Below are positions 2,588-33,295 of a stretch of 64,000 bases of DNA, piece after piece. The notes under the pieces were generated by a model that saw nothing but the letters and a program-made list of their open reading frames with translations, ran no database searches and was not told the DNA's origin. The translations under genes were made by a program, and so were the position numbers. The DNA comes from Candidatus Gastranaerophilales bacterium (GTDB lineage Bacteria; Cyanobacteriota; Vampirovibrionia; Gastranaerophilales; Gastranaerophilaceae). Location: assembly GCA_944323145.1 (NCBI GenBank), contig CALURJ010000008.1, positions 10,727 through 74,726 of the forward strand, in the 5' to 3' direction. Each line of letters opens with the position of its first letter. Position 1 is the first letter of the stretch.

Positions 2588-3363
2588 GCGTTTACTTTGG
2601 CAGAAGTTTTAATCACCCTTGGCATTATCGGAGTAGTTTCTGTACTTGTATTATCGAGTGTAATCCCTTCAATTCAGGACAAACAAAATATCGCCAAATG
2701 GAAAAAAGAATATTCTGTCATAAATAATGCCTTTAATGCAGTGTTAGCAAAAGATGTAACAATATATGATCAGGGAGGATATACAGATGAATTTGTTGAT
2801 GCTTTTCAAAAGGAATTACGTATAGTTGATTACTGCGGTATTAGTGCGGATGATGTTCCATCAGATAAAATATGTGATAATTTTAATACATATAAAAACG
2901 TGAAATACAAGTGGTCAGGGGTTGCAAATATCTATTCCCGTTACAAAGCTCTGGGAGTAAGAACAGAATCGAATCCCGGCAGTTATTCCCCTTATGGGAT
3001 CCAGGCATATAACTTTAGCAGACTTGCCCTTCTATTAAATGATGGAGCAGTAATATATTTAGGTGAAAGTCATGGTGGCCCTTGGATAGTCGTTGATGTA
3101 AATAATTTTAATAAAGGCCAAATGAATTCGGTCGTGATGTATTTGTAATCCATGTATCCTCTAACATATCGATAGGTAGATATAACCTTCAGGCAATGGG
3201 TGCTGAAGGTACGTATAACAAAGCCTCGAATGGAGATATTTGTGAGTGTTCCAAAGATAAAGGAAAAAAGTCTGCAACTTATATAGGTGATGCGGCGGGT
3301 TCAAATGGTGAAGTAATCTCCGGTGCCTGCTGTTCCGCTAAATATCTTCTTGAATAAGTTATT

Positions 3364-12216: not shown

Positions 12217-15200
12217 ATGGAATGTCCAAAATGCGGTTTACAAATTGATGATAATGCAATGGTTTGCCCTAATTGTAAAAAGGTGCTTAAACTAGTATGC
12301 CCTGTTTGCAGAACTGTAAACGATACAAATACCTGTAAAAAATGCGGATATGTTATTATCACAAAATGTCATAACTGCGGAAAAGTTAATCAAACCGGAA
12401 GTAAAAAATGTAAAAAATGCGGTTTTGATACGGAAAAAAGCGTAATCCTAAATGAAGCAAATTCCGATGAATTTGTTATTATGACAATTGATTTCCCTAA
12501 TATTGATGATATGAAAAATCTTTTGGGGTCGGTTAAGCTTCTCAATAAATTCAAAATAAACCTTGATAAAATTATTTATAATTATACAAAATCCATAGGT
12601 GTAAGACGTCAAATTATCGGGAAAACCCATGTTATAAGATTTGACAGGGATTATACATTTAATTCTTCGGCACAAACCGCGGTGAAATCAGCTATCGATA
12701 TCTTAAACCAAATTACGGCAATGAACTGCAAACTGACTAAAAAGAAAAATGCCACCGTCAGATGTAATATGTTTTTGATGAAAAGAACTGTTGATGATGA
12801 CCCGAATAATTTGGATTCCGGCTTTAATATCAGTTTGTTAAATCAATCAGGGAATAAAAAAGAAGAAAAAATTCTGAATACTTTTCAGGTTTTGACAGAT
12901 GATGATGTCTGTAACGCTCTTGATGGCGAATACAGATTATCTCCGTTGAATTCCGTTATGATTAATGATGAAATGGTAATGTTTTATGAGCTTGATTTAA
13001 AAGAGTTTGTAAAAGTTGAGTATCCGGAAGAAGAGAGTGATGAAATTAAAATTCCGAATTTTGTCCAGAATATGCTTATAGAACAGGACAAATTAGACGG
13101 TGAGGCTTTAAATAATCTGGATTCCACAGGAGACCCCGATGCCATTTACGATATTGAAACAATTAATTTTGACGAGATAAACGCGGAATTTATGCGCACT
13201 GAAAATGTTGATGTTTTATTTCATATTTTGAATAAATTTCAGGCAATTCATAAGGGTATCATGGCAATAAAGACGGATAAGCTTTATAAACCTTATACTT
13301 TGAGGGTTTTGAATACTCTTTCGGATACGGGACAGTTTAATAATATTATTACAATTACCTGTTATGACGAGATGAAATATTCTCCTTATTCTTTCTTCAG
13401 GGATCTTGTTTCTGCAATATTTGAATATACAGTGTCGCAAAAATTATTTTCACAAAATGATTTTTCAATGTTTAATTCTGTTGACCCTGACGGTTTAATA
13501 AAAGATTTAATCACTTTGAACAAACGTGAAACAGAGAACACCGAGGATACCAGATTTATATATTTTGATATTTTCCTGACTCTGTTGCAAATTATTCCTA
13601 AAACGGTAATTTATATTGAAGATTTTGACAAAATTGACTCAAGTTCTTATGATGTTCTCAAATTTATATTTGAATCTTTTGAACAGCTTGATATAAGTTT
13701 CCTTGTTACATACAGCAAATCTTTCTCTCTTCACAGGGATTGCCATTTCTTGCTTACAAAGCCTTATTATACTGAGATTATGCTCAAACCTACTTCTTTT
13801 GAAAAATTGATTGAGGATAATAAAGTATATTATCGTAATGTTCTTGATAATTTTTATTTTCAGAGGGTTGCAAAATATTCCTGCGGAAGTATGCTGTTTA
13901 TAGATTTTGCAATTCAGTACTTGATAGAATCCGGTGTTTTTGCGGTTGATGAAGACTGCATTACAATGATTAATCCGAAAACTATTATTATTCCGTCGAA
14001 TCTCGACAGACTTATTGCCAGAAGACTGAATCTTTTGCAGGATGAAGCAGATGTAATGAAATTTTTAACCTCAATAGTGCTTCTGGGAACACGTATTGAT
14101 ATGAATACTGTTGCAAGCCTCGGGTATGAAAATCAGTCTGAAATTATAGAAAAACTTTCCAATATGGGTTATGTTTTTGAATATAATAATTGCTTATATT
14201 TCCCGAATTATAATCTTTTAAGAGATAATTTATTGACTACCGTAAGCAAAATTTATCTGGAAGATGTTGCCAGAGAGCTTTTTGATAAAGTTTTTATCGA
14301 AGGAATGCCAAGTCCTGTAAAGGCATATTTATACGGCTTGCTTCAGGATACTGAAAATGAACGGAAACAGTGGGAAGAGCTTGCTCAAATTAATCTGGCA
14401 CTGGGCGATTTTAGTTCTTATTTAAACTGTACGAATAAGATTTTACAACTGCTTGACTTAAATCAGGAACCGGAACAGCAGGAAGCGCTGCAGGAATATA
14501 AACTCAATTTATACGAGGAGATTTCTAATAATCTGTACGAATATGTTCCGGAAAAAACTTCTGAAATTGCAGAGGAAACCTTAAAGAATTTAGAAAAAAC
14601 AAAAGATGTAGAAAAAATAATATTTCTCTGCAATAAAATGATTAACGGGGCATTGAATACCGGAGATTATAATCACGCGCTTGAGCTTACGCATAAAGTT
14701 TTGTCCCTGCTTCCTGTATCATCTTTAGATCCTTCGGCTCTGAATTTTAATACATATTTTTTCCTTATGTCATTAATTCATATTCAAATTTTATTCAATG
14801 TCGGAGCGTTAATGGATTCGCTTGATGTCGGTTATAAAGTTTTGAATATAATCAACAGAGATTCTGTAAAAGTATTGAAACCTGAATATTTTACGGAAGA
14901 AGATTTTAATTCATTAATTATTGATTCTGTAGGGTATGTTGCTCTTGGGAATGTTTTGATATTATCCGGAAATGTTGCGCAGTTTTTGGATATTGTTAAT
15001 GCTGATCTGGACTTTATTCCGAAATCTTATATCTTATTTGTTGCTCTTGAAGATTTAATTCATGGAAGGCCTATTTCGGTCACGATTCCGGAAGTTGCAG
15101 AAAATGACAGGTTTGGCAATGTAATTGTTAATATAATTAATGCATTTGTAAATTTAGATGGCGATTACAAAAATTTTGCCGAACATATTTATAAAGCTAA

Positions 15201-15717
15201 AATTGCCGCTAAAATAGGACGTATTCATCAACTTGAGCTGTTCTGCGATTTGTTAATCGGTTACGCATATCTGCAGCTGGATTCGTATAAAAAGGCTGAT
15301 TCTATTATTTATAAGATTATTAAGGCAACAAATAATAACGGAATGACAACTCTTTTATATGTTGCCTGGTATGTTATGAGTGAATTGCATTTAAAACAGA
15401 ATAAATATGAGGTTGCATACGGAATTATTAACAATTCACTTATTCAGCTTGAAAAAAATAACGTAACCAGCGAATATCTTTTAATGTTGTTTAAATATAA
15501 CATGTACAAAGTAATGATGTTTAAAGGCCAAAAGGAGAAGGCCGAAATTTGTATGGCGCATGCACAATATATTGCGGCTAAATACGGTATAAATTTTAAT
15601 TTTGATACAGATCCGGCGCATTATATTGCGGTAGAAGAGGATGAGGCAGAAACAGCCGGAACATTTAATGAAAATACGGTATTTATTTCCGAAAATTCAT
15701 CAAAAGAAGGAGAGTAA
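12217..15717 (+). CDS. Large multi-zinc-ribbon / degenerate cyclase-like / TPR-like repeat protein
   Basis: 1166 aa. N-terminus has six CxxC pairs (CPKCG, CPNC, CPVC, CKKCG, CHNCG, CKKCG). This is followed by a region resembling a class III nucleotidyl-cyclase fold (VIMTIDFPNIDDM...), then a long helical repeat region. Confidence 0.5.
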   Translation: MECPKCGLQIDDNAMVCPNCKKVLKLVCPVCRTVNDTNTCKKCGYVIITKCHNCGKVNQTGSKKCKKCGFDTEKSVILNEANSDEFVIMTIDFPNIDDMKNLLGSVKLLNKFKINLDKIIYNYTKSIGVRRQIIGKTHVIRFDRDYTFNSSAQTAVKSAIDILNQITAMNCKLTKKKNATVRCNMFLMKRTVDDDPNNLDSGFNISLLNQSGNKKEEKILNTFQVLTDDDVCNALDGEYRLSPLNSVMINDEMVMFYELDLKEFVKVEYPEEESDEIKIPNFVQNMLIEQDKLDGEALNNLDSTGDPDAIYDIETINFDEINAEFMRTENVDVLFHILNKFQAIHKGIMAIKTDKLYKPYTLRVLNTLSDTGQFNNIITITCYDEMKYSPYSFFRDLVSAIFEYTVSQKLFSQNDFSMFNSVDPDGLIKDLITLNKRETENTEDTRFIYFDIFLTLLQIIPKTVIYIEDFDKIDSSSYDVLKFIFESFEQLDISFLVTYSKSFSLHRDCHFLLTKPYYTEIMLKPTSFEKLIEDNKVYYRNVLDNFYFQRVAKYSCGSMLFIDFAIQYLIESGVFAVDEDCITMINPKTIIIPSNLDRLIARRLNLLQDEADVMKFLTSIVLLGTRIDMNTVASLGYENQSEIIEKLSNMGYVFEYNNCLYFPNYNLLRDNLLTTVSKIYLEDVARELFDKVFIEGMPSPVKAYLYGLLQDTENERKQWEELAQINLALGDFSSYLNCTNKILQLLDLNQEPEQQEALQEYKLNLYEEISNNLYEYVPEKTSEIAEETLKNLEKTKDVEKIIFLCNKMINGALNTGDYNHALELTHKVLSLLPVSSLDPSALNFNTYFFLMSLIHIQILFNVGALMDSLDVGYKVLNIINRDSVKVLKPEYFTEEDFNSLIIDSVGYVALGNVLILSGNVAQFLDIVNADLDFIPKSYILFVALEDLIHGRPISVTIPEVAENDRFGNVIVNIINAFVNLDGDYKNFAEHIYKAKIAAKIGRIHQLELFCDLLIGYAYLQLDSYKKADSIIYKIIKATNNNGMTTLLYVAWYVMSELHLKQNKYEVAYGIINNSLIQLEKNNVTSEYLLMLFKYNMYKVMMFKGQKEKAEICMAHAQYIAAKYGINFNFDTDPAHYIAVEEDEAETAGTFNENTVFISENSSKEGE

Positions 15718-18118: not shown

Positions 18119-19501
18119 TTATCCGAGGTATTTTTGAACAGCTTCTTTTGAAAATACTTCAATACTGTCTTGGGAGTGAATAAATATCATACAGCTAATC
18201 AGGGATTTGAGGGTTTCAAAATCCGAGAAGGATAATTTGTATCTTAAATCATCCATGTTATTTGCCAAAAATTCCATTACAATTGTTTTGTTTTCAAAAA
18301 CAAGACTTGAAAAATAATCAAATGAATCTTTTGTTTTTATCCCTTCTAAATATATAATATCCGGAGATTGGAATTCAATAAATCTTGATGCTTTGTCCAT
18401 ATTAAATCCGACATTTTCATTGAGTTCACACTGATGAACATTTTTGAGATTGTATTTTGCAATACTTTCTAAAGTCATAATATTTTTATTCATTCCGGAA
18501 GCTTCAATGAGGAGTGAATAAATTATATGGGTTTTTCCGCTCAAAGGAGAACCACATACAATAATTATTCCCGGAATATTAAGAGCCGACTTAATCAGCT
18601 TTAATGATTTTTCAGATTTAATTATTTGATTTAACGGTTTTGGCGGTTTATAAATTTTCAGAAAAATTCTCTCGCCCATAATTGTCGGGAAGGTTGATAT
18701 GCTCGCTACAACATTTATGTTATTAACTTTAAAAGTAAGTTTTCCAAGCTGCGGAACCTCGCTTACTGAGGCATCAAGTTCTGCCAGTGTTTTTAATTTA
18801 GCGGTAAATGATGAACTTAAGACCTGAGGGATACTTCCTCTATTCAAAAATTCTCCGTTTTTCTTAAAGTTTACGCCGAATCCGTCTTCTCCGCTCTGGA
18901 AAGTAACTTCGTGCACCCCTTCAAGAATTGCCTGTTTTAAGATTGATGTAATAATTTTTTGAATATGATTATCAGATAGGTCTTCACTGTGAAGTTCATC
19001 GCGCCAATCATATTCAACCCCATCTTCCGTGAGTATTTCTCCGATAGCAGAATCTTGTTTATAGTATTCATCAATTTTTTTTAGAATACTGCTTTCTGAT
19101 GATACAACAGGCTCAATAGAACATTCCGCGGTTTCTATAATTTTATCTATTGCAAATAGATCAAGAGGATCCGCCATTGCAACCGTCAGAGTATCTTCTA
19201 TTTTAAAAAGCGGAATTATACGGTATTTTTTCGCATCAGAGTAATTTATAAATTTTATACATTTAGGGTCAAGTGTGTAATCTTCCAAATTTACATAGGG
19301 AATATGAAGCTTTGCTTCCAGAAATTTCAGAATTGTCTCTTCAGATATAACTCCTGAGTTTATGAGCGCTTGTCCTATGTTAATATTTTGAGCATTAGCA
19401 ACTTCTTCAGCCTGTTCAATTGTTTCATAAGGAACAAGACCTGCTCTGACCATATCATATTTCAATTTTTCGAGAGTTTTGTTTGTTACTGTTGTTTCCA
19501 T
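18119..19501 (-). CDS. GspE/PilB-family ATPase-like protein with T2SSE_N/MshEN-like N-domain (degenerate C-terminus)
   Basis: 460 aa. N-domain NIGQALINSGVISEETILKFLEAKLHIPYVNLEDY. Walker A CGSPLSGKT. Walker-B-like SPDIIYLEGIKTKD. The His-box region is not recognisable. Confidence 0.65.
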   Translation of the reverse strand: METTVTNKTLEKLKYDMVRAGLVPYETIEQAEEVANAQNINIGQALINSGVISEETILKFLEAKLHIPYVNLEDYTLDPKCIKFINYSDAKKYRIIPLFKIEDTLTVAMADPLDLFAIDKIIETAECSIEPVVSSESSILKKIDEYYKQDSAIGEILTEDGVEYDWRDELHSEDLSDNHIQKIITSILKQAILEGVHEVTFQSGEDGFGVNFKKNGEFLNRGSIPQVLSSSFTAKLKTLAELDASVSEVPQLGKLTFKVNNINVVASISTFPTIMGERIFLKIYKPPKPLNQIIKSEKSLKLIKSALNIPGIIIVCGSPLSGKTHIIYSLLIEASGMNKNIMTLESIAKYNLKNVHQCELNENVGFNMDKASRFIEFQSPDIIYLEGIKTKDSFDYFSSLVFENKTIVMEFLANNMDDLRYKLSFSDFETLKSLISCMIFIHSQDSIEVFSKEAVQKYLG

Positions 19502-27471: not shown

Positions 27472-28752
27472 ATGGCAATAGCAAATATAATTTCGGCAAT
27501 CGGCAACAATAACAGTGTTTACCCTTTAATCGTACGTGACTGCGGAATAGAGGTTCCGACAAAAATTGCTCTGACTTATGAGCAGAACAAAAAAGAATCA
27601 AAAGGAATTGCATATCTCGCAGCCAGGGAACGTTTTTTAGATGAATATTCCGTATCTGCAGTGTGGCTCGGCGGTATTCCTTTGGTCGGCTGGCTGTGTG
27701 ATAAGTATATAAAAACAAAAGGTCTGAATCCTAAAGTTAATTTGAAATTGTTCAAGGAAGAAAACGGAATTCAGGGGATTGATTACAATATCAAAAAGTT
27801 CAAAGATATTGCGCCTGATGCGGTAAAAGACTTATTAAAAGTAAAACAAAATAAAAAAATGTATGAAAAACTGCTCGCTTCAAAATTTATTGCATCAACA
27901 ACAATTCCTATTCTGTTTATGGGATTTATTCTGCCGAAACTTATTTTTGCTTCATCAGCAAGAAAAATTGAAAATTTGAGAAAAAAAGAAGCACAGCAAA
28001 AGTCTACTGATAAGATAAGTTTTTTACAAAAGGATAGATTTTATAAAAATAAGGATATTAGTTTTTCAGGAAACTGGGTTGCAAAGGTCGCAAATTTTTC
28101 CGCACAGGATAAGATGGCAGTAACAGACGGCGGGTATGCTCTTGGGCGTGTCGGAACTGCAAGAAATAAAAATGAGGCCTATGATATTTCTTTCAAAATG
28201 GCGGGCATGATGTTTTTAAATTTTGTTGCTCCCAAATGGATTGAAAAAGTTTTGAATAAAGCTACAGGGGTAGAGCTTGATCCTGTAATTCTTGCTGATA
28301 AAAAATTTATAGCGCAGGTAAAGGACGGAAGTATATTAAATAATCTTCCAAAATCCGATAAAGCTGAAGATTTGTTAAAATTTGTTGATGATATTTCTAA
28401 TAAAGATACGCAATTTATAAAATTTGCAAAGAAATTCGGGAAAATACAAATATTAGAAAACGGTGTCAGAGATCCAAGAACCTATGTTGATATCAAGAAT
28501 TTAAGCAAATTTAGAAATGATATAAAAACTTTTGCGGAAACTGCAAAAGGCAAGAGTGATGATGCGTTTAGATTATTTGTTAAAAAATCAAGGTTTGCAA
28601 AATCTGCTAATATTATAACAAACGTTGCATTGAGCAGTTTTTTATTGGCGTATGCGCTTCCAAAAGCTCAGTTTAAATTCAGAAAATGGATAACAGGCTC
28701 AGATTTGGAACCAGGTCTTGCTCCGGCAGAAAAAATTGTTGATAATGCATAA
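27472..28752 (+). CDS. Hypothetical membrane-associated protein
   Basis: 426-aa ORF with RBS GGAATTGGAG and several hydrophobic segments. No family recognised. Confidence 0.4.
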   Translation: MAIANIISAIGNNNSVYPLIVRDCGIEVPTKIALTYEQNKKESKGIAYLAARERFLDEYSVSAVWLGGIPLVGWLCDKYIKTKGLNPKVNLKLFKEENGIQGIDYNIKKFKDIAPDAVKDLLKVKQNKKMYEKLLASKFIASTTIPILFMGFILPKLIFASSARKIENLRKKEAQQKSTDKISFLQKDRFYKNKDISFSGNWVAKVANFSAQDKMAVTDGGYALGRVGTARNKNEAYDISFKMAGMMFLNFVAPKWIEKVLNKATGVELDPVILADKKFIAQVKDGSILNNLPKSDKAEDLLKFVDDISNKDTQFIKFAKKFGKIQILENGVRDPRTYVDIKNLSKFRNDIKTFAETAKGKSDDAFRLFVKKSRFAKSANIITNVALSSFLLAYALPKAQFKFRKWITGSDLEPGLAPAEKIVDNA

Positions 28753-28764
28753 CTTGTAATGCTT

Positions 28765-28791
28765 GGCGAGATAAGCTTTGCTTATCCCGCC
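28765..28791 (+). terminator. Hairpin terminator
   Basis: ggcgagataagc-ttt-gcttatcccgcc, a 12-bp stem with one mismatch, 13 nt after the stop codon. Confidence 0.45.
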
Positions 28792-28868
28792 CTACTATTC
28801 TCTTATAATACAGTATTGAAAGAATTAGTTGGTATAATTTCCGAAAAGCGGCAGATCAAAAATTAAAA

Positions 28869-29927
28869 TTACTTGTAACTCTCTAAAAGCATTTGTTTAG
28901 ATGTCTTGCCGCCTTTTTCAACTGTATTCGCCCCGCATGAAATGCCTGAATCAACTTTCAGATTATAGCCGTCAGAAGAGCTAATCCCAAATTGAAACAA
29001 ATCGTATCCCCATTTATTAGGCCCTTTTCTACCGTTAATGTCTATGGCAAACATTGGATAGCTTCCTTCATAACACCACATCATTATGGTACCGTCTGAT
29101 AGAACCCAGACCATATTCGAATTTGAAATTGAGCTTTTTGTAAAGCAGGTGCAGCCTTTAGTAGAATTTTCAATTTCTTCTTCTGTTGCGTCAGGATTAT
29201 TTTCCGCAAAAATTTCATTATTCCCTTTGTATTCAGGGATACAGCCGTTGTTCAATGCATTCCCGTTACATTCTTTTATTATTGACATGTTTTTCTTTAG
29301 TTCTTGAGCCGCAGCTTTGCATTTTCTGCTTCCATCGCTAGTATTTCCTGCATGGTCGGGATAATAACATTCCGGAGCGTAGCCTAAATTATATTCTAAA
29401 GTTTTGTATGCATTTTGAATGGTGTTATAACTTTTTAAAAATTGTTTTTGCAAAACTTTTTGCTGATATTTCGCAGTAACCGCAGGTATAGTCATAGCCG
29501 CGACCACACCGATAATTCCGAGGGTGATAAGTACCTCCGCCAAAGTAAATGCAGCTCGACGGATATTGTGAGAGTAGGCTACGTGCGCAGCACCTTCTCC
29601 TGTGGGAGAGGGATGGGGTGAGGGTTCTTTTTCCCCTCCCTTGAGGGGAGGGGAAGTAAAGGGGTGGGTGAGATCAGAAGAACAGAAGACCGGAGGGCAG
29701 GAAGTCAGGCTAAAATTAGATGCAAAGATGCAAGGATGCATAGAGGCAAAGCTATTATCAATAATAAATTTTGTCCATGTTTTACCTAAATAGCTATAAA
29801 CGAAAATAGCCTGACCTCTTGACCTCTTGACCTCCGACCTTCCATCTAGCAACTTAGCTGCATCAATTTCTATCGTGTACGCGCTTTCGGGGGGGGGGCC
29901 GATTTTCAGCTGGTCATTCTCAACCAT
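28869..29927 (-). CDS. Pilin-like protein B with prepilin-type N-terminal motif and about 125-codon leader (phase-ON)
   Basis: RBS AAGAGGAG (29943-29936) and ATG 29927. A C10 tract is read as GPPP. The ORF stays open through the GC-rich cassette into RRAAFTLAEVLITLGIIGVVAA (motif at 29553-29533). The C-terminus has DINGRKGPNKWGYDLF, shared with locus A. The true start is uncertain. Confidence 0.6.
   Translation of the reverse strand: MVENDQLKIGPPPESAYTIEIDAAKLLDGRSEVKRSRGQAIFVYSYLGKTWTKFIIDNSFASMHPCIFASNFSLTSCPPVFCSSDLTHPFTSPPLKGGEKEPSPHPSPTGEGAAHVAYSHNIRRAAFTLAEVLITLGIIGVVAAMTIPAVTAKYQQKVLQKQFLKSYNTIQNAYKTLEYNLGYAPECYYPDHAGNTSDGSRKCKAAAQELKKNMSIIKECNGNALNNGCIPEYKGNNEIFAENNPDATEEEIENSTKGCTCFTKSSISNSNMVWVLSDGTIMMWCYEGSYPMFAIDINGRKGPNKWGYDLFQFGISSSDGYNLKVDSGISCGANTVEKGGKTSKQMLLESYK
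29554..29888 (-). repeat. Leader cassette copy B
   Basis: Gene-sense modules in order: ggaaggtc/ggaggtca/agaggtca/agaggtca array, about 70-nt AT-rich core, gcatcctt/gcatcttt/gcatctaa array, pyrimidine array tgacttcc/tgccctcc/ggtcttct/gttcttct, hairpin cccctccc-ctcaa-gggagggg, and a small gtgc-tgc-gcac hairpin. Confidence 0.65.
29889..29898 (-). repeat. C10 (G10 on + strand) homopolymer tract in the 5' coding region
   Basis: Ten consecutive G on the + strand, 27 nt after ATG 29927. At this length the ORF is in frame. Confidence 0.8.
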
Positions 29928-29960
29928 AATAAAACTCCTCTTAATCATACAATATATTTT

Positions 29961-29989
29961 ATTATTTAATATTTTTTGATATTTGTCAA
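29961..29989 (-). promoter_or_regulatory. Sigma70-type promoter of pilin-like gene B
   Basis: On the minus strand: TTGACA (29989-29984), 17-bp spacer, AATAAT (29966-29961). It lies about 20 nt upstream of the RBS. Confidence 0.5.
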
Positions 29990-30005
29990 TATTAAAATAA
30001 AAAAA

Positions 30006-30025
30006 GACGTGAATTATCACACGTC
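30006..30025. terminator. Hairpin terminator downstream of UDG gene
   Basis: gacgtg-aattatca-cacgtc flanked by an A run and a T run (aaaaagacgtg...cacgtctttttt). Confidence 0.55.
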
Positions 30026-30052
30026 TTTTTTGTAATAGACATTTGTTATAAC

Positions 30053-30718
30053 TTAAACTAAAGCAAGTTCTTTTGCTTCCATAAATTCTACACTATTGCC
30101 ATCATTAAAGTGGTCAACATCCGGCAGAATAGTGTCTTTAATATTTTTTAAATCAATCTGCATTAATCTTCTTGGAGAACCTTCTTCCATTGAGCGGTTT
30201 CTCAAAAGATATGACGGGTGGAATATTGTTATAGCTTTGTAGTCTTTTCCGTCAACATTAATTGTCATCCACTGGCCTCTGACTTTTGAGATTGTCTGTT
30301 TTTTATCAAGGTTAACAAAAGATTTTAATGCTGTAGCTCCGCATAAAACAATTGCACGCGGATTGATAATATCAATTTGAGCGTTTAAAAATTTTCTGCA
30401 AGCTGCTTTTTCATCATCTGTAGGAACTCTGTTTTCAGGAGGTCTGCATTTTACAGTGTTAATCATATAAATATCTTCTTCTCTTGAAATCCCTGCTTCT
30501 GCAAGAAATTCATTCAAAAGTTGTCCGGCACGCCCTACAAATGGTCTGCCTAATTCATCTTCCATCTCTCCAGGTGCCTCTCCTATGAATACAACTTTGG
30601 CAGTAGAAGGATTTCCGTCAGAAAATACTACATTTTTACGGGTTTTGCCGAGCGCGCATGCCGTACATTTGTTACACTTTGAGCTTACTATCTCCAGACA
30701 ATCTTTCTTCATTTTCAT
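30053..30718 (-). CDS. Uracil-DNA glycosylase, family 4
   Basis: 221 aa. N-terminal Cys cluster CNKCTAC, GEAPGEMEDELGRPFVGRAGQLL and HPSYLLR motifs. Confidence 0.9.
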   Translation of the reverse strand: MKMKKDCLEIVSSKCNKCTACALGKTRKNVVFSDGNPSTAKVVFIGEAPGEMEDELGRPFVGRAGQLLNEFLAEAGISREEDIYMINTVKCRPPENRVPTDDEKAACRKFLNAQIDIINPRAIVLCGATALKSFVNLDKKQTISKVRGQWMTINVDGKDYKAITIFHPSYLLRNRSMEEGSPRRLMQIDLKNIKDTILPDVDHFNDGNSVEFMEAKELALV

Positions 30719-32183
30719 CTCTCTCCTCTTTAAATAATCCTACATTATATTTTTTACAATATCTTTTTAATTCTTTCATGATTACATCAGATAACATGAA
30801 TACTGCTATTAAGTTTGGCACAGCCAAGAATAAAGTAAATGCATCAGATAGATTAATTATACTTTTAAAGTTCATGGCAGAACCTATAATAATGAATAAA
30901 CAATATATAACCTGAAAAGTCCGTGTTGTCAATTTTGTATCGCCAAATAAATAATTCCACGCTTTAATTCCGTAATATGAACCGCAAAGCATTGTGGACA
31001 GTACAAAACAACTTGCCATAAATGTTAACAAAATCGGGAAAAACGGACATACACTTCCGAATGCTTTAGATGTTAATTCAATGCCTGCAATACCTGTTGT
31101 ATTCAAGTATTCACCGGAAACAACTATGACAAAAGCGGTCGCAGAGCCTACAATAACAGTATCAACAAAAGGCTGAAGCATTGCAATAAAGGCTTGAGCA
31201 ACCGGATTATTTGTTTTTACGGCGGAAAATGCAATAGGAGCAGTTCCAAGCCCTGCTTCATTTGCGAACATTGCACGGCGAAATCCCCATAACATGCACA
31301 TCATCCATCCGCCGGCTAATGCTTTTGGATGAAATGCTTCTTTTAAAATTACACTGAATGTATGAGGAACATGTCCAATATTATACAGACAAACTGCAAA
31401 AGCTGTGAGAACATATAAAGTGCACATAACCGGTGTTACTTTTGAAGTAAATTTTCCTATAGCTTTTATCCCGCCGATTATGGTAAAATAGGTTATAACT
31501 GCAACTATTAATCCTAAAAGCCAGCTTTGATGAGCAAAAAAGCTATTTTCTCCGCCGGTAACTTCAGTAAGCTGGGTTGTCATTGCATTTATTTGGAATA
31601 AATTCCATCCGCCTATCATTGCAAAAATACAGCATACGGCATAAATTTTTGAAAGATGCGGTGCAAATTTTCCTATGTATTTGTTATTTTTTAAAGCTCC
31701 CTCAATGTAATACATTGGCCCGCCCGCTATTGTTCCGTCAGGATTAACTTTACGAAATTTCAATCCGAGAAGAACTTCCGCAAACTTTAAAGCCATTGAG
31801 AAAAAACCGGCCATAATCATCCAAAAAATGACACCCGGCCCGCCTATTGATACGGCAGCAGCAGATCCTGCAACATTTCCTATTCCGGCAGATGCTGAAA
31901 TTGTTGCAGTAAGAGCCTGAAATGATGAAACTTCGCCTTTTTTCTTTTTAACACGTATTTCTTTATGTTCGTAGTTTTTAGTAATCAGTTTAATTGCGTG
32001 TTTAAATCCCCAAATTCCGATAAAACGAGTTCTGATTGTAAAATAAAATGCGGCAATCATTAAAAGGGCAACGAGAAATTCAATTCTAACCCCGTTAATG
32101 GTGATAGAACTAAAGATAATCCCTGAAATTTTATCGGCTATCGGAGATAAAAATGTATCTATGGCTGTGTCTAAATTCATCAA
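30672..32183 (-). CDS. Alanine/glycine:cation symporter (AGCS family)
   Basis: 503 aa, polytopic. The GGPGVIFWMIMAGFF and FANEAGLGTAPIA motifs are typical of AGCS. Confidence 0.9.
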   Translation of the reverse strand: MMNLDTAIDTFLSPIADKISGIIFSSITINGVRIEFLVALLMIAAFYFTIRTRFIGIWGFKHAIKLITKNYEHKEIRVKKKKGEVSSFQALTATISASAGIGNVAGSAAAVSIGGPGVIFWMIMAGFFSMALKFAEVLLGLKFRKVNPDGTIAGGPMYYIEGALKNNKYIGKFAPHLSKIYAVCCIFAMIGGWNLFQINAMTTQLTEVTGGENSFFAHQSWLLGLIVAVITYFTIIGGIKAIGKFTSKVTPVMCTLYVLTAFAVCLYNIGHVPHTFSVILKEAFHPKALAGGWMMCMLWGFRRAMFANEAGLGTAPIAFSAVKTNNPVAQAFIAMLQPFVDTVIVGSATAFVIVVSGEYLNTTGIAGIELTSKAFGSVCPFFPILLTFMASCFVLSTMLCGSYYGIKAWNYLFGDTKLTTRTFQVIYCLFIIIGSAMNFKSIINLSDAFTLFLAVPNLIAVFMLSDVIMKELKRYCKKYNVGLFKEERDENEERLSGDSKLKV

Positions 32184-32229: not shown

Positions 32230-32500
32230 ATATGTTATTAGAAGTCGATAAGTCGATAAGACGTTAAGACGTTAAGTCATTACGGTGCGCTTCGCGCACG
32301 TAAAAATTTTCCTTCCCTAGCTAGGGAAGGCTAGGATGGGTGATAATTAGAGGCGAAGAGGCATAGATGCTAAGAGGCAAAGCTAGTATCAATAATGAAT
32401 TTTGCTGCAATTTTACCAAAATATCTATAAATGAAAACAGCCTGCCCTCTTACCCTCCTATCCTCTGTAGGCGTATATTTCCCTCTCTTGAGAGAGGAAA
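32230..32500 (-). repeat. Orphan leader cassette copy C (no pilin body)
   Basis: Collinear with copy B: purine array ggatagga/gggtaaga/gggcagg, a near-identical AT-rich core, and a gcctct arrays module. Then hairpins ccttccc-tagcta-gggaagg (32311-32330) and gtgcgc-ttc-gcgcac (32285-32299). Then exact 8-mer tandem repeats agtcgata x2 and agacgtta x2 (32242-32285). Contains in-frame stops. Confidence 0.65.
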
Positions 32501-32518
32501 ATATACTAATAACATATC

Positions 32519-33295
32519 TTATGACACTTTTGAAAGTGTATTGTTATTCACATGATTTACAAGTGCTTTGAAAATAAAAGGATGGAGTTTTCCTTCTTTT
32601 ACATCCTGATAAATTATTGTCAATGCCTGTTTAGGGCTCATAGCCTCTTTATATACGCGATTTTCAGTAAGTGCAGAATATTTATCCGAAGCAGAAAGAA
32701 TTTGCAGGTTTAAATCTGCATTAAAATCATTGCCTACCCAAGGATATCCTGTTTTTTTCGCATTTTGATGATGATTACGCACAAGATTCAATGTTACTGG
32801 TGAAATATCTGTTGTTTTAAGCATTTCATACCCGAGTTGAGAGTGCGTATGCATAATTTTTATTTCGTTCTCGTCGAGTTTTGCGGCTTTGTTTAAAATA
32901 TTTTCAGGAATTAGGACTTTGCCTATATCATGAAGATATGCAGCGTCATCTATGGCTTTTAAGTCTACTTTATTTCTTAGAGAAAATGGTAAATTTTCAG
33001 CTATTCCTTTTGCAATTTTTTGAGTATCCGAGGCGTGCTTATTTAAAAGTTCTTTAAGTTCCTGGATATTTAACTGCATTTGCGGGTTAAAGTTTTTGAC
33101 AATTTTTTTAATTTTTGGATTGGAGTTAATCATTCTGTTTATCGCAGCTTCCGTTGTGTAACGCTCAACGGATTGTCTTTCAAAGGTGTCTGAAACACTA
33201 TTTTGACCGAAACCTGTATTATATCTGTTCCGGTTAATATAAATATTTGAACTTATTCCGCCCACACCAAGCGGTCTTGATATTTCCAGTCCCAT
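32519..33295 (-). CDS. HD-GYP domain protein (putative c-di-GMP phosphodiesterase)
   Basis: 258 aa. HDIGKVLIP...HTHSQLGYEML...HHQNAKKTGYPW motifs. Confidence 0.8.
   Translation of the reverse strand: MGLEISRPLGVGGISSNIYINRNRYNTGFGQNSVSDTFERQSVERYTTEAAINRMINSNPKIKKIVKNFNPQMQLNIQELKELLNKHASDTQKIAKGIAENLPFSLRNKVDLKAIDDAAYLHDIGKVLIPENILNKAAKLDENEIKIMHTHSQLGYEMLKTTDISPVTLNLVRNHHQNAKKTGYPWVGNDFNADLNLQILSASDKYSALTENRVYKEAMSPKQALTIIYQDVKEGKLHPFIFKALVNHVNNNTLSKVS

Follow-up and report, generated by a model that had tools for sequence, protein, structure and literature searches.

Runs of G or C of at least 9 nt, with modal lengths of 9–10 nt, are the classical slipped-strand switches in Neisseria, pilC among them (PMC5953494). 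In this study, we analyzed a stretch of 64,000 nucleotides (hereafter the window; contig CALURJ010000008.1 of assembly GCA_944323145.1) from a Candidatus Gastranaerophilales bacterium, and particularly a gene on its minus strand, termed gene 1 (28869–29989 with its promoter), in which a run of ten C residues (C10) lies between the start codon and a remote prepilin motif. The C10 run of gene 1, in codons 10–13, exceeds the threshold of 9 nt given in PMC5953494 for poly-G/C runs of hypermutable length inside an open reading frame (ORF), where length changes not divisible by three alter the frame. We consider it likely that the run is a slipped-strand ON/OFF switch, located within a leader that stays in the cytoplasm, is cleaved off and can accommodate in-frame junk. 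A second gene of this kind in the window (gene 2) and the pilin-like genes of related genomes were analyzed together with gene 1.

The pilC gene, the poly-G 'phasome' of Neisseria and Campylobacter, and the poly-G genes of C. jejuni all resemble gene 1 in carrying a G/C run of at least 9 nt (mode 9–10) in the 5' coding region, where the gain or loss of one base turns the gene ON or OFF (PMC5953494). On the other hand, PilC is a Sec-exported tip/adhesin protein, not a pilin, and a Neisseria genome has one or two pilC genes, whereas the tracts described here occur in the greater part of a very large family of paralogues and sit in a class III leader that is predicted to be removed on the cytoplasmic side. 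The opa genes of Neisseria are another relevant case, as most copies are OFF at any time and the family is displayed combinatorially. They also constitute a multigene surface family, in which each leader-coding region has its own frame-shifting repeat (CTCTT/CTTCT; see PMC5953494 for the repeat). However, the opa repeat is a pentamer, the products reside in the outer membrane and have class I signal peptides, and the leaders are not expanded by repeats.

The class III leader of a prepilin stays in the cytoplasm and is cut by prepilin peptidase on the cytoplasmic face; the documented leaders of this class are 6–26 aa in length (~15–30 aa for type IVb), and Gly at position -1 is essentially invariant in bacteria (PMC4471445). 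The type IVb/Flp pilins such as TcpA and Flp1, with hydrophilic class III leaders longer than the 6–10 aa of type IVa, are comparable to the proteins studied here, but the leaders of the latter comprise 13–157 codons, and their extra length is repeat-derived, hypervariable and without a confident predicted fold. Rickettsia palindromic elements (RPEs), reportedly described by Ogata and co-workers in 2000, are said to occur between genes as well as within ORFs, where they are tolerated and translated. The repeats in the window share with RPEs and with repeats similar to miniature inverted-repeat transposable elements (MITEs) the presence of short, palindromic, dispersed copies in both intergenic DNA and ORFs. 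In contrast to RPEs, the insertions found here occur solely in a segment whose removal from the protein is expected, and they include unstable octamer arrays able to shift the frame. Finally, programmed transcriptional slippage, as in T. thermophilus dnaX, Shigella mxiE/spa13 and insertion sequence (IS) transposases, involves a run approximately as long as the RNA-DNA hybrid and a product that is out of frame downstream. The known cases use A/T runs, have a fixed direction of correction, and yield two products that both have roles, whereas the genes considered here have G/C runs, opposite corrections among paralogues, in-frame alleles and DNA-level polymorphism.

Organization of gene 1

Gene 1 is headed by a sigma-70-like promoter, TTGACA-17-AATAAT (29961–29989, minus strand, as are all the elements of this gene), which matches the consensus at 11 of 12 positions and adjoins the terminator of the UDG gene (30031–30000) on the 3' side of the latter. 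The Shine-Dalgarno (SD) sequence AAGAGGAG and the start codon ATG 29927–29925 follow in 29925–29945, and the same layout of SD and ATG is found in the tract-bearing relatives. Nine codons separate the ATG from the C10 homopolymer (29889–29898), the putative switch, which starts in codon 10, is read as GPPP, and leaves the gene in frame (ON). The leader body downstream of the run (29553–29888) is 112 codons long and is assembled from palindromic modules and octamer repeats; its pilin frame is free of stops, whereas the other two frames hold 5 and 10, and it continues into RRA|AFTLAEVLITLGIIGVVAAMTIP. The core of the class III signal, A(-1)|FTLAEVLITLGIIGVVAAMTIP with Glu5, occupies 29487–29552. 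Ala(-1) is encoded at 29552–29550 and Phe(+1) at 29549–29547, placing the predicted cut at 29550|29549. The mature pilin-like protein (28869–29549) of 226 aa is predicted to consist of a long N-terminal helix and a compact alpha/beta domain, and the ORF ends at 28869. In total, the leader from Met1 to Ala-1 amounts to 125 residues instead of the short hydrophilic leader of 6–26 aa that marks the class; SEVKRSRGQAIFVYSYLGK is one of the peptides predicted from it. Reading of the sequence bore out the promoter, SD, ATG 29927, C10 run and open frame into the prepilin motif as given in the original prediction, in which the motif was, however, ended too early at 29533, as the hydrophobic segment extends to about 29496.

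The nearest in-frame start codon other than ATG 29927 is ATG 29741, which lies 64 codons before Phe+1 and has no SD. It is followed by a TTG at 101 codons and by ATG 29927 itself at 126 codons, so that the absence of a closer GTG or TTG, which had been noticed at the outset, holds true. We rejected internal initiation at ATG 29741, as this codon lacks an SD and is chosen by gene callers only when the tract is C9.

Judged from its sequence, the product of gene 1 is a type IV pilin-like protein of gut Gastranaerophilales (Melainabacteria). The protein passes the thresholds of two curated models for the N-terminal domain of prepilin-type proteins, PF07963 (22.0 bits; cut-off, 21.2) and TIGR02532 (18.2 bits; cut-off, 16.3). 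Glu at +5 lies in a hydrophobic stretch of ~21 residues, F1-T-L-A-E5-VLITLGIIGVVAAMTIP, and these positions were invariant in both of the alignments made. In the AlphaFold2 model, which was built from a 36-sequence alignment, residues 1–125 had no confident structure (predicted local distance difference test score, pLDDT, 30–57), while a single 53-residue helix (129–181) was followed by a confident alpha/beta domain (pLDDT 84–96). More than 7000 homologues were found and, where named, they were 'type II secretion system protein' or prepilin-type proteins of Candidatus Gastranaerophilales, Stercorousia or Scatousia. Many of the database homologues open with a short peptide that leads through GGG(G) into a long leader of mosaic composition; in others, the leader is of the canonical kind, as in MKKGFTLSEV.

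Survey of pilin-like genes in Gastranaerophilales

We surveyed 80 loci, 1.24 Mb in all, from species-representative genomes of the order Gastranaerophilales, taking each N-terminal pilin motif preceded by 600 nt or more of sequence. The survey yielded 120 genes, in all of which 150 or more open codons past the motif were required; the intact bodies of these genes are therefore a selection criterion and no evidence against decay. A run of G or C of 8–13 nt (mode 10) was found within 600 nt upstream of the motif in 73 of the 120 genes. The layout, which the original prediction had treated as the property of a single gene, is thus family-wide, and it recurs in gene 2 of the same window.

The stretch between the run and the motif varies from 6 to 425 nt among the relatives, and it is free of stops in the pilin frame in 68 of the 73 tract-bearing genes, while the other frames hold 1–14 stops. 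For the gaps of at least 60 nt, the pilin frame was open in 35 of 40 genes and each of the other frames in none of 40; for those of at least 200 nt, the corresponding numbers were 12 of 15 and 0 of 15. As the stops are absent specifically from the pilin frame, which we regard as the decisive result of the analysis, the leaders are almost certainly translated from the upstream ATG. Stops throughout the leaders of orthologues, the pattern named beforehand as speaking against a translated leader, are not what the 68 open frames exhibit.

The start signals agree with this view of translation. SD and ATG precede the run in 67 of the 68 open cases and are spaced 21–35 nt from it in 61 of the 67. No in-frame start occurs within 15 codons of Phe+1 in 55 of the 68 tract-bearing genes, and a start with an SD lies there in only 4; an ATG preceded by an SD is present within the same distance in 28 of the 47 genes that lack a tract. 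The leaders, counted from ATG to Phe+1, have a median of 37 codons, and gene 1 with its 126 codons belongs to the top tenth.

The 1.24 Mb contained 90 G/C runs of at least 8 nt, as compared with ~2 expected at this GC content. Seventy-six of them lie upstream of a pilin motif that points the same way, at a distance of no more than 600 nt. In contrast to Neisseria, 84% of the long G/C runs in the sampled Gastranaerophilales DNA thus belong to one gene family. Several of the remaining 14 runs precede divergent pilin-like genes. The arrangement of SD, ATG and tract was also seen before a second, divergent pilin-like subfamily (FTLADTLITLG, YTLAEIIIVMLIIAV / FTLSEVIIVMLIIAV) in three loci (L030, 9980–9990; L043, 8080–8089; L045, 15858–15868), and the proposed switch would therefore not be restricted to one subfamily. 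Long G/C runs away from pilin-like genes were noticed in four loci (L012, 8319–8330; L031, 12786–12795; L027, 4902–4911; L039, 19733–19742), and one of these non-pilin runs is a C12 inside an ORF reading ...GLSGGGGNLKPLRISFYGDNN...; they may mark other phase-variable genes of the order.

Tract lengths and reading frames

Among the 90 runs, 52 are of 10 nt and 18 of 11 nt, and the rest are of 8 (4 runs), 9 (4), 12 (6) or 13 nt (6). The frame of the upstream ATG relative to the pilin frame was determined for 67 genes. The largest class, 34 genes, combines a tract of 10 nt with an offset of 2 and would need the gain of one base to come into frame; the next, 11 genes, combines a tract of 11 nt with an offset of 1 and would need the loss of one base. 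Fifteen further OFF genes have a tract of 12 nt with offset 1 (4 genes), a tract of 9 nt with offset 2 (4 genes), or another tract length with offset 1 or 2 (7 genes). The ATG and the pilin motif are in the same frame (ON) in only 7 of the 67 genes, five with a tract of 10 nt and two with a tract of 11 nt, which is a depletion against the expectation of one third (P = 1.4e-5). The lengths that put a gene ON are nearly always 10 or 11, and most genes are at the neighboring OFF length. In the OFF alleles, the ATG frame is closed 2–6 codons past the run, and the commonest peptide is 15 aa. By this census, the usual state of the family appears to be OFF by one base, with gene 1 among the rare ON alleles.

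We recovered the loci of the window from other metagenomes via the neighboring genes and obtained 11 aligned contigs for gene 1. The tract is C10 in nine contigs and C9 (OFF) in the contigs of two samples (L101 and L104, of which L104 was recovered separately). Outside the tract, the 11 contigs differ by only 3 single-nucleotide polymorphisms (SNPs) over 1320 nt, and the mature part is nearly invariant; in one of the nine C10 contigs (L100), 3 nt are deleted next to the tract, which leaves the frame unchanged. For both C9 contigs, a 290-aa ORF from ATG 29741 is what the gene caller reports instead. The tract of gene 2 varies likewise, with G10 in 4 contigs and G9 in 3. A check of related assemblies for heterogeneity in tract length, as proposed with the original prediction, thus returned lengths that differ between samples and alter the frame in both genes. 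The closest orthologue of gene 1 (P0002 in L103) has the same promoter, SD, ATG, 28 nt and C10 as gene 1, yet its ATG is not in the pilin frame and its leader is another one (the scanning or reading of promoter-like sites covered genes 1 and 2 and L103 only).

Contigs break at or just after tracts in L014, L072 and L100. More generally, contig ends were seen at a homopolymer or inside a leader in L014 (16–28), L072 (1–11) and L064 (3828–3840) and at the ends of L099 and L100. Such ends are consistent with either read heterogeneity or repeat-induced assembly breaks.

Composition of the leader body

The leader of gene 1 stands out from its surroundings, with a GC content of 0.49–0.58 at 29550–29750 against a window mean of 0.347, and the RNA fold of 29540–29940 is more stable than those of shuffled controls (z = -3.0). 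It contains an imperfect inverted repeat of 36 nt (29677–29712 / 29807–29842) around a 94-nt core, a perfect 10-bp hairpin (29631–29655), and tandem arrays of octamers (29671–29689, 29718–29751 and 29812–29834). The GC-rich, hairpin-dense character attributed to this cassette in the original prediction is therefore real, but what makes it look 'structured' is repeat junk, palindromic and octameric, rather than a dedicated RNA element.

The modules of the leader are found again in other leaders and in non-coding DNA. Its segment 29714–29834 is 81% identical over 122 nt to intergenic DNA at 32345–32465. The latter belongs to an intergenic copy of the repeat modules (32240–32520, minus strand) between an HD-domain gene (32519–33295) and a Na/Ala symporter gene (30672–32183), and this copy is closed in the frame equivalent to that of the gene 1 leader, with a TAG in place of the ATG codon. 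Shorter matches to the modules of the leader lie upstream of gene 2. The intergenic block also contains hairpins and two octamer tandem arrays (AAGTCGAT x4.6 and AGAGGCAA x4.2). From sample to sample, the length of the block varies by 8, 16 or 18 nt and that of its arrays by 8 or 16 nt, as octamer copies are gained or lost. The octamer arrays themselves are therefore unstable, and since 8 is not divisible by 3, the arrays in leaders are potential second switches. A potential example is a paralogue (P0003; L102, 1–480; contig ERZ4198922 NODE_44964), of which the 5' cassette and leader are almost identical to those of gene 1 except for two, not three, GAGGTCAA units. The mature domain of this paralogue departs from that of gene 1 after ...AAMTIP, which suggests that recombination swaps 5' cassettes (leaders or heads) between paralogues. 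In addition, alleles with mature parts 97.5–99% identical to each other differ in the leader by module blocks of ~50 aa, and duplicated 'AFTLAE...AFTLAEV' blocks are present in some relatives.

When both leaders and the intergenic copy were compared by blastn with the 80 foreign loci, no match was longer than 47 nt (range, 24–47 nt); the modules have diverged so far between species that they do not lend themselves to tests of covariation or dN/dS. An Rfam 15 scan of 28000–31000 gave nothing relevant at E <= 1, the only two matches being at chance level and elsewhere. Altogether, the leader body is probably tolerated, frame-filtered repeat debris, being neither a dedicated RNA element nor a dedicated protein element.

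Gene 2 and the genomic setting

Gene 2, on the plus strand, repeats the layout of gene 1. The SD AAGGAGAGG and ATG 2310 (2297–2312) are followed by ten codons, a G10 tract (2340–2349) and ~240 nt of repeat sequence before KKCAFTLAEVLITLGIIGVV. The ATG frame ends at TAG 2355, and a G11 tract would fuse the ATG to the pilin frame, so gene 2 is OFF by one base. The leader body (2350–2587) consists of related repeat modules, has an RNA fold with z = -2.2, and contains 5 and 6 stops in the other frames but none in the pilin frame, which can be followed without a stop to the far side of the tract. The pilin-like body (2588–3148) is a pseudogene in the haplotype of the window, in which a 1-nt deletion at AAAGG(G)CC (~3115) removes the conserved end, KGPNxxGxDxF. 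The other haplotype, with G9, carries a nonsense change, GGA>TGA. Across the samples, there are 4 variable columns in 1050 nt: the G10/G9 difference, one SNP, GGA>TGA, and the 1-nt indel near the 3' end.

The window is an ordinary piece of the chromosome of a diderm bacterium, encoding LpxB, LpxI, RuvB, RelA and thymidylate kinases. The machinery of type IV filaments is represented in the window by a T2SSE/MshEN ATPase only (18119–19501), and pilA, pilB, pilC, pilT and pilD have been reported for a Gastranaerophilales genome (PMC5877343). A 426-aa ORF (27472–28752, plus strand) without a Pfam or NCBIfam match is convergent with gene 1 and adjoins it in all of the samples, being called as 440 aa in L096. 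Elsewhere in the window, a protein of 1166 aa (12217–15717, plus strand) has an N-terminal double zinc ribbon as its sole recognizable feature, and the symporter ORF overlaps at its end with the beginning of the UDG ORF by ~40 nt (30672–30718, minus strand), as also in the public gene calls.

Proposed mechanism and alternative explanations

We propose the following course of events for gene 1. Transcription would start from the promoter at ~29989–29961 and translation from ATG 29927. The ribosome would read nine codons, the C10 run and ~112 codons of repeat-derived sequence, and only then the class III core (A|FTLAEV...). The long leader would presumably be cleaved off in the cytoplasm and may have no function at all; in that case, its length and sequence would be almost unconstrained, the sole need being that no stop arises and the frame is kept. 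Such freedom would let palindromic and octamer modules, which are also scattered in intergenic DNA, accumulate between the tract and the motif. The homopolymer would work as a slipped-strand contingency switch: with one base gained or lost, the ATG would fall out of the pilin frame and run into a stop 2–6 codons past the tract. Each paralogue would have an independent switch of its own, toggling mainly between 10 and 11 bases and presumably in a reversible manner within a population. With most copies OFF in the population consensus, a cell would display few of its many pilin-like proteins. Of the two alternatives raised in the original prediction, this is the former, an exceptionally long, phase-variable leader, and it gains support from the frame being open through leaders of up to 425 nt as well as from the tract lengths that differ between samples.

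Several observations weigh against this proposal. We know of no leader longer than ~26–30 aa that has been shown to be processed. The residue at -1 of gene 1 is Ala in place of the canonical Gly (RRA-A|F), and the tract-bearing relatives have Ala in 49 and Gly in 24 cases (n = 73). A Foldseek search of the globular domain of gene 1 against the PDB gave no match to a solved pilin and none better than E = 0.7. The tract lengths were read from assembled contigs; both of the C9 contigs for gene 1 are short, and L101, for which alone a coverage is stated, has ~2.4x. Since gene 2 is a pseudogene in both haplotypes, some OFF copies may be dying. Finally, the strong bias toward OFF together with the sharp mode at exactly 10 could mean that slippage at the RNA level expresses out-of-frame alleles.

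The last point leads to the alternative of programmed recoding, in which being out of frame is the designed state and the pilin is made through transcriptional slippage or ribosomal frameshifting, resulting in low constitutive expression of many paralogues. Sixty of the 67 genes are out of frame, half of them being exactly G10 with the pilin frame at -1, and the spacing between ATG and tract is stereotyped. Transcriptional slippage on long runs, known from A/T runs in E. coli, T. thermophilus dnaX and Shigella mxiE, has a threshold near the ~9–10 bp of the RNA-DNA hybrid, and the rarity of runs shorter than 10 nt (8 of 90) fits such a threshold. Nevertheless, the two main classes need opposite corrections (+1 in the 34 G10 genes and -1 in the 11 G11 genes), unlike a ribosomal frameshift site; in-frame intact alleles exist (7 genes), gene 1 being ON in 9 of 11 contigs; and the tract length differs between samples at the DNA level. 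Moreover, the zero-frame product is a mere ~15-aa peptide, and the sequences after the tract differ, with no conserved stimulatory structure. Because of the opposite corrections, the in-frame alleles and the DNA polymorphism, we rank recoding below a DNA switch and regard it as unlikely. We judge equally doubtful its broadest form, in which the out-of-frame state is selected by design in the whole family, slippage takes place on G10/G11 ~9 codons past the start, and the octamer arrays serve as second-tier frame switches. If true, a family-wide recoding system would set the dose of dozens of surface proteins in a gut phylum that is as yet uncultured. Ribosomal -1 frameshifting on G GGG GGG as a general mechanism was rejected, as a large class needs the opposite shift. 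Slippage at the RNA level may still add leakiness on top of switching in DNA.

The tract-bearing genes might instead be mostly silent or decaying copies (pseudogenes or pilS-like donors) with leaders of 5' debris, among which gene 1 is open by accident. The independent inactivation of gene 2 in both haplotypes, the mosaic 5' cassettes (L102 combining the gene 1 leader with another body) and the prevalence of OFF copies are in line with this idea, but dead DNA would not stay free of stops for up to 425 nt in one frame in 68 of 73 genes, every copy retains its own SD and ATG, and the mature part of gene 1 hardly varies across samples; we hold it to be rather improbable. Even less probable is the second alternative of the original prediction, an RNA-level or processed element, in which the cassette of 330 nt is a structured 5' untranslated region (riboswitch, attenuator or processed RNA), the ATG and tract form a regulatory upstream ORF, and the pilin starts at a non-canonical codon near AFTLAEV. 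The folds of both leaders surpass shuffled controls, and the long inverted repeat and perfect hairpins would suit an RNA structure. Against this, no Rfam family matched at E <= 1, neither an SD nor a start codon lies near the motif, and an untranslated region leaves the frame-specific lack of stops unexplained. The hairpins are generic dispersed repeats with intergenic copies that carry stops, the leader mosaic differs between near-identical alleles, and the gaps of the relatives are so variable in length (6–425 nt) and unrelated in content that no RNA is conserved. The least probable explanation is that the tract lengths and frames are errors of sequencing or short-read assembly. Long G/C runs are error-prone, several contigs have a low coverage of 2.4–6x, and contigs break near tracts, but dozens of independent assemblies contain, in 73 genes altogether, the same position, SD, ATG and frame logic, C10 of gene 1 is found in nine independent contigs, and the G9 haplotype of gene 2 occurs in 3 samples with linked SNPs. 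In short, these three explanations are contradicted by the conserved frame and its recurrence across independent assemblies.

Implications

The features described above point to an as yet undescribed on/off system of surface variation. In the literature on Melainabacteria or Gastranaerophilales dealing with pilin, phase variation, homopolymers or type IV pili, we did not find the architecture described, and to our knowledge it would be the first contingency-locus system described for these bacteria. In comparison with known contingency loci, what differs is the location of the switch in a class III leader, its presence in most of a very large pilin-like family, leaders of 125–157 residues, and the unstable octamer arrays. 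The distribution of tract lengths and frames predicts a toggle between G10 and G11, with the ON state depleted about 5–7-fold.

The comparative evidence suggests that a prepilin leader can be five times any documented length, which bears on the tolerance of prepilin peptidase and of targeting by the signal recognition particle. It also matters for annotation, as gene callers start such genes at arbitrary internal codons (e.g., the 290-aa call in the C9 allele), which would result in thousands of wrong N-termini in public databases. Melainabacteria/Gastranaerophilales are common but uncultured gut bacteria, and the switch proposed here would imply that they vary the surface of their type IV filaments under pressure from the host or phages.

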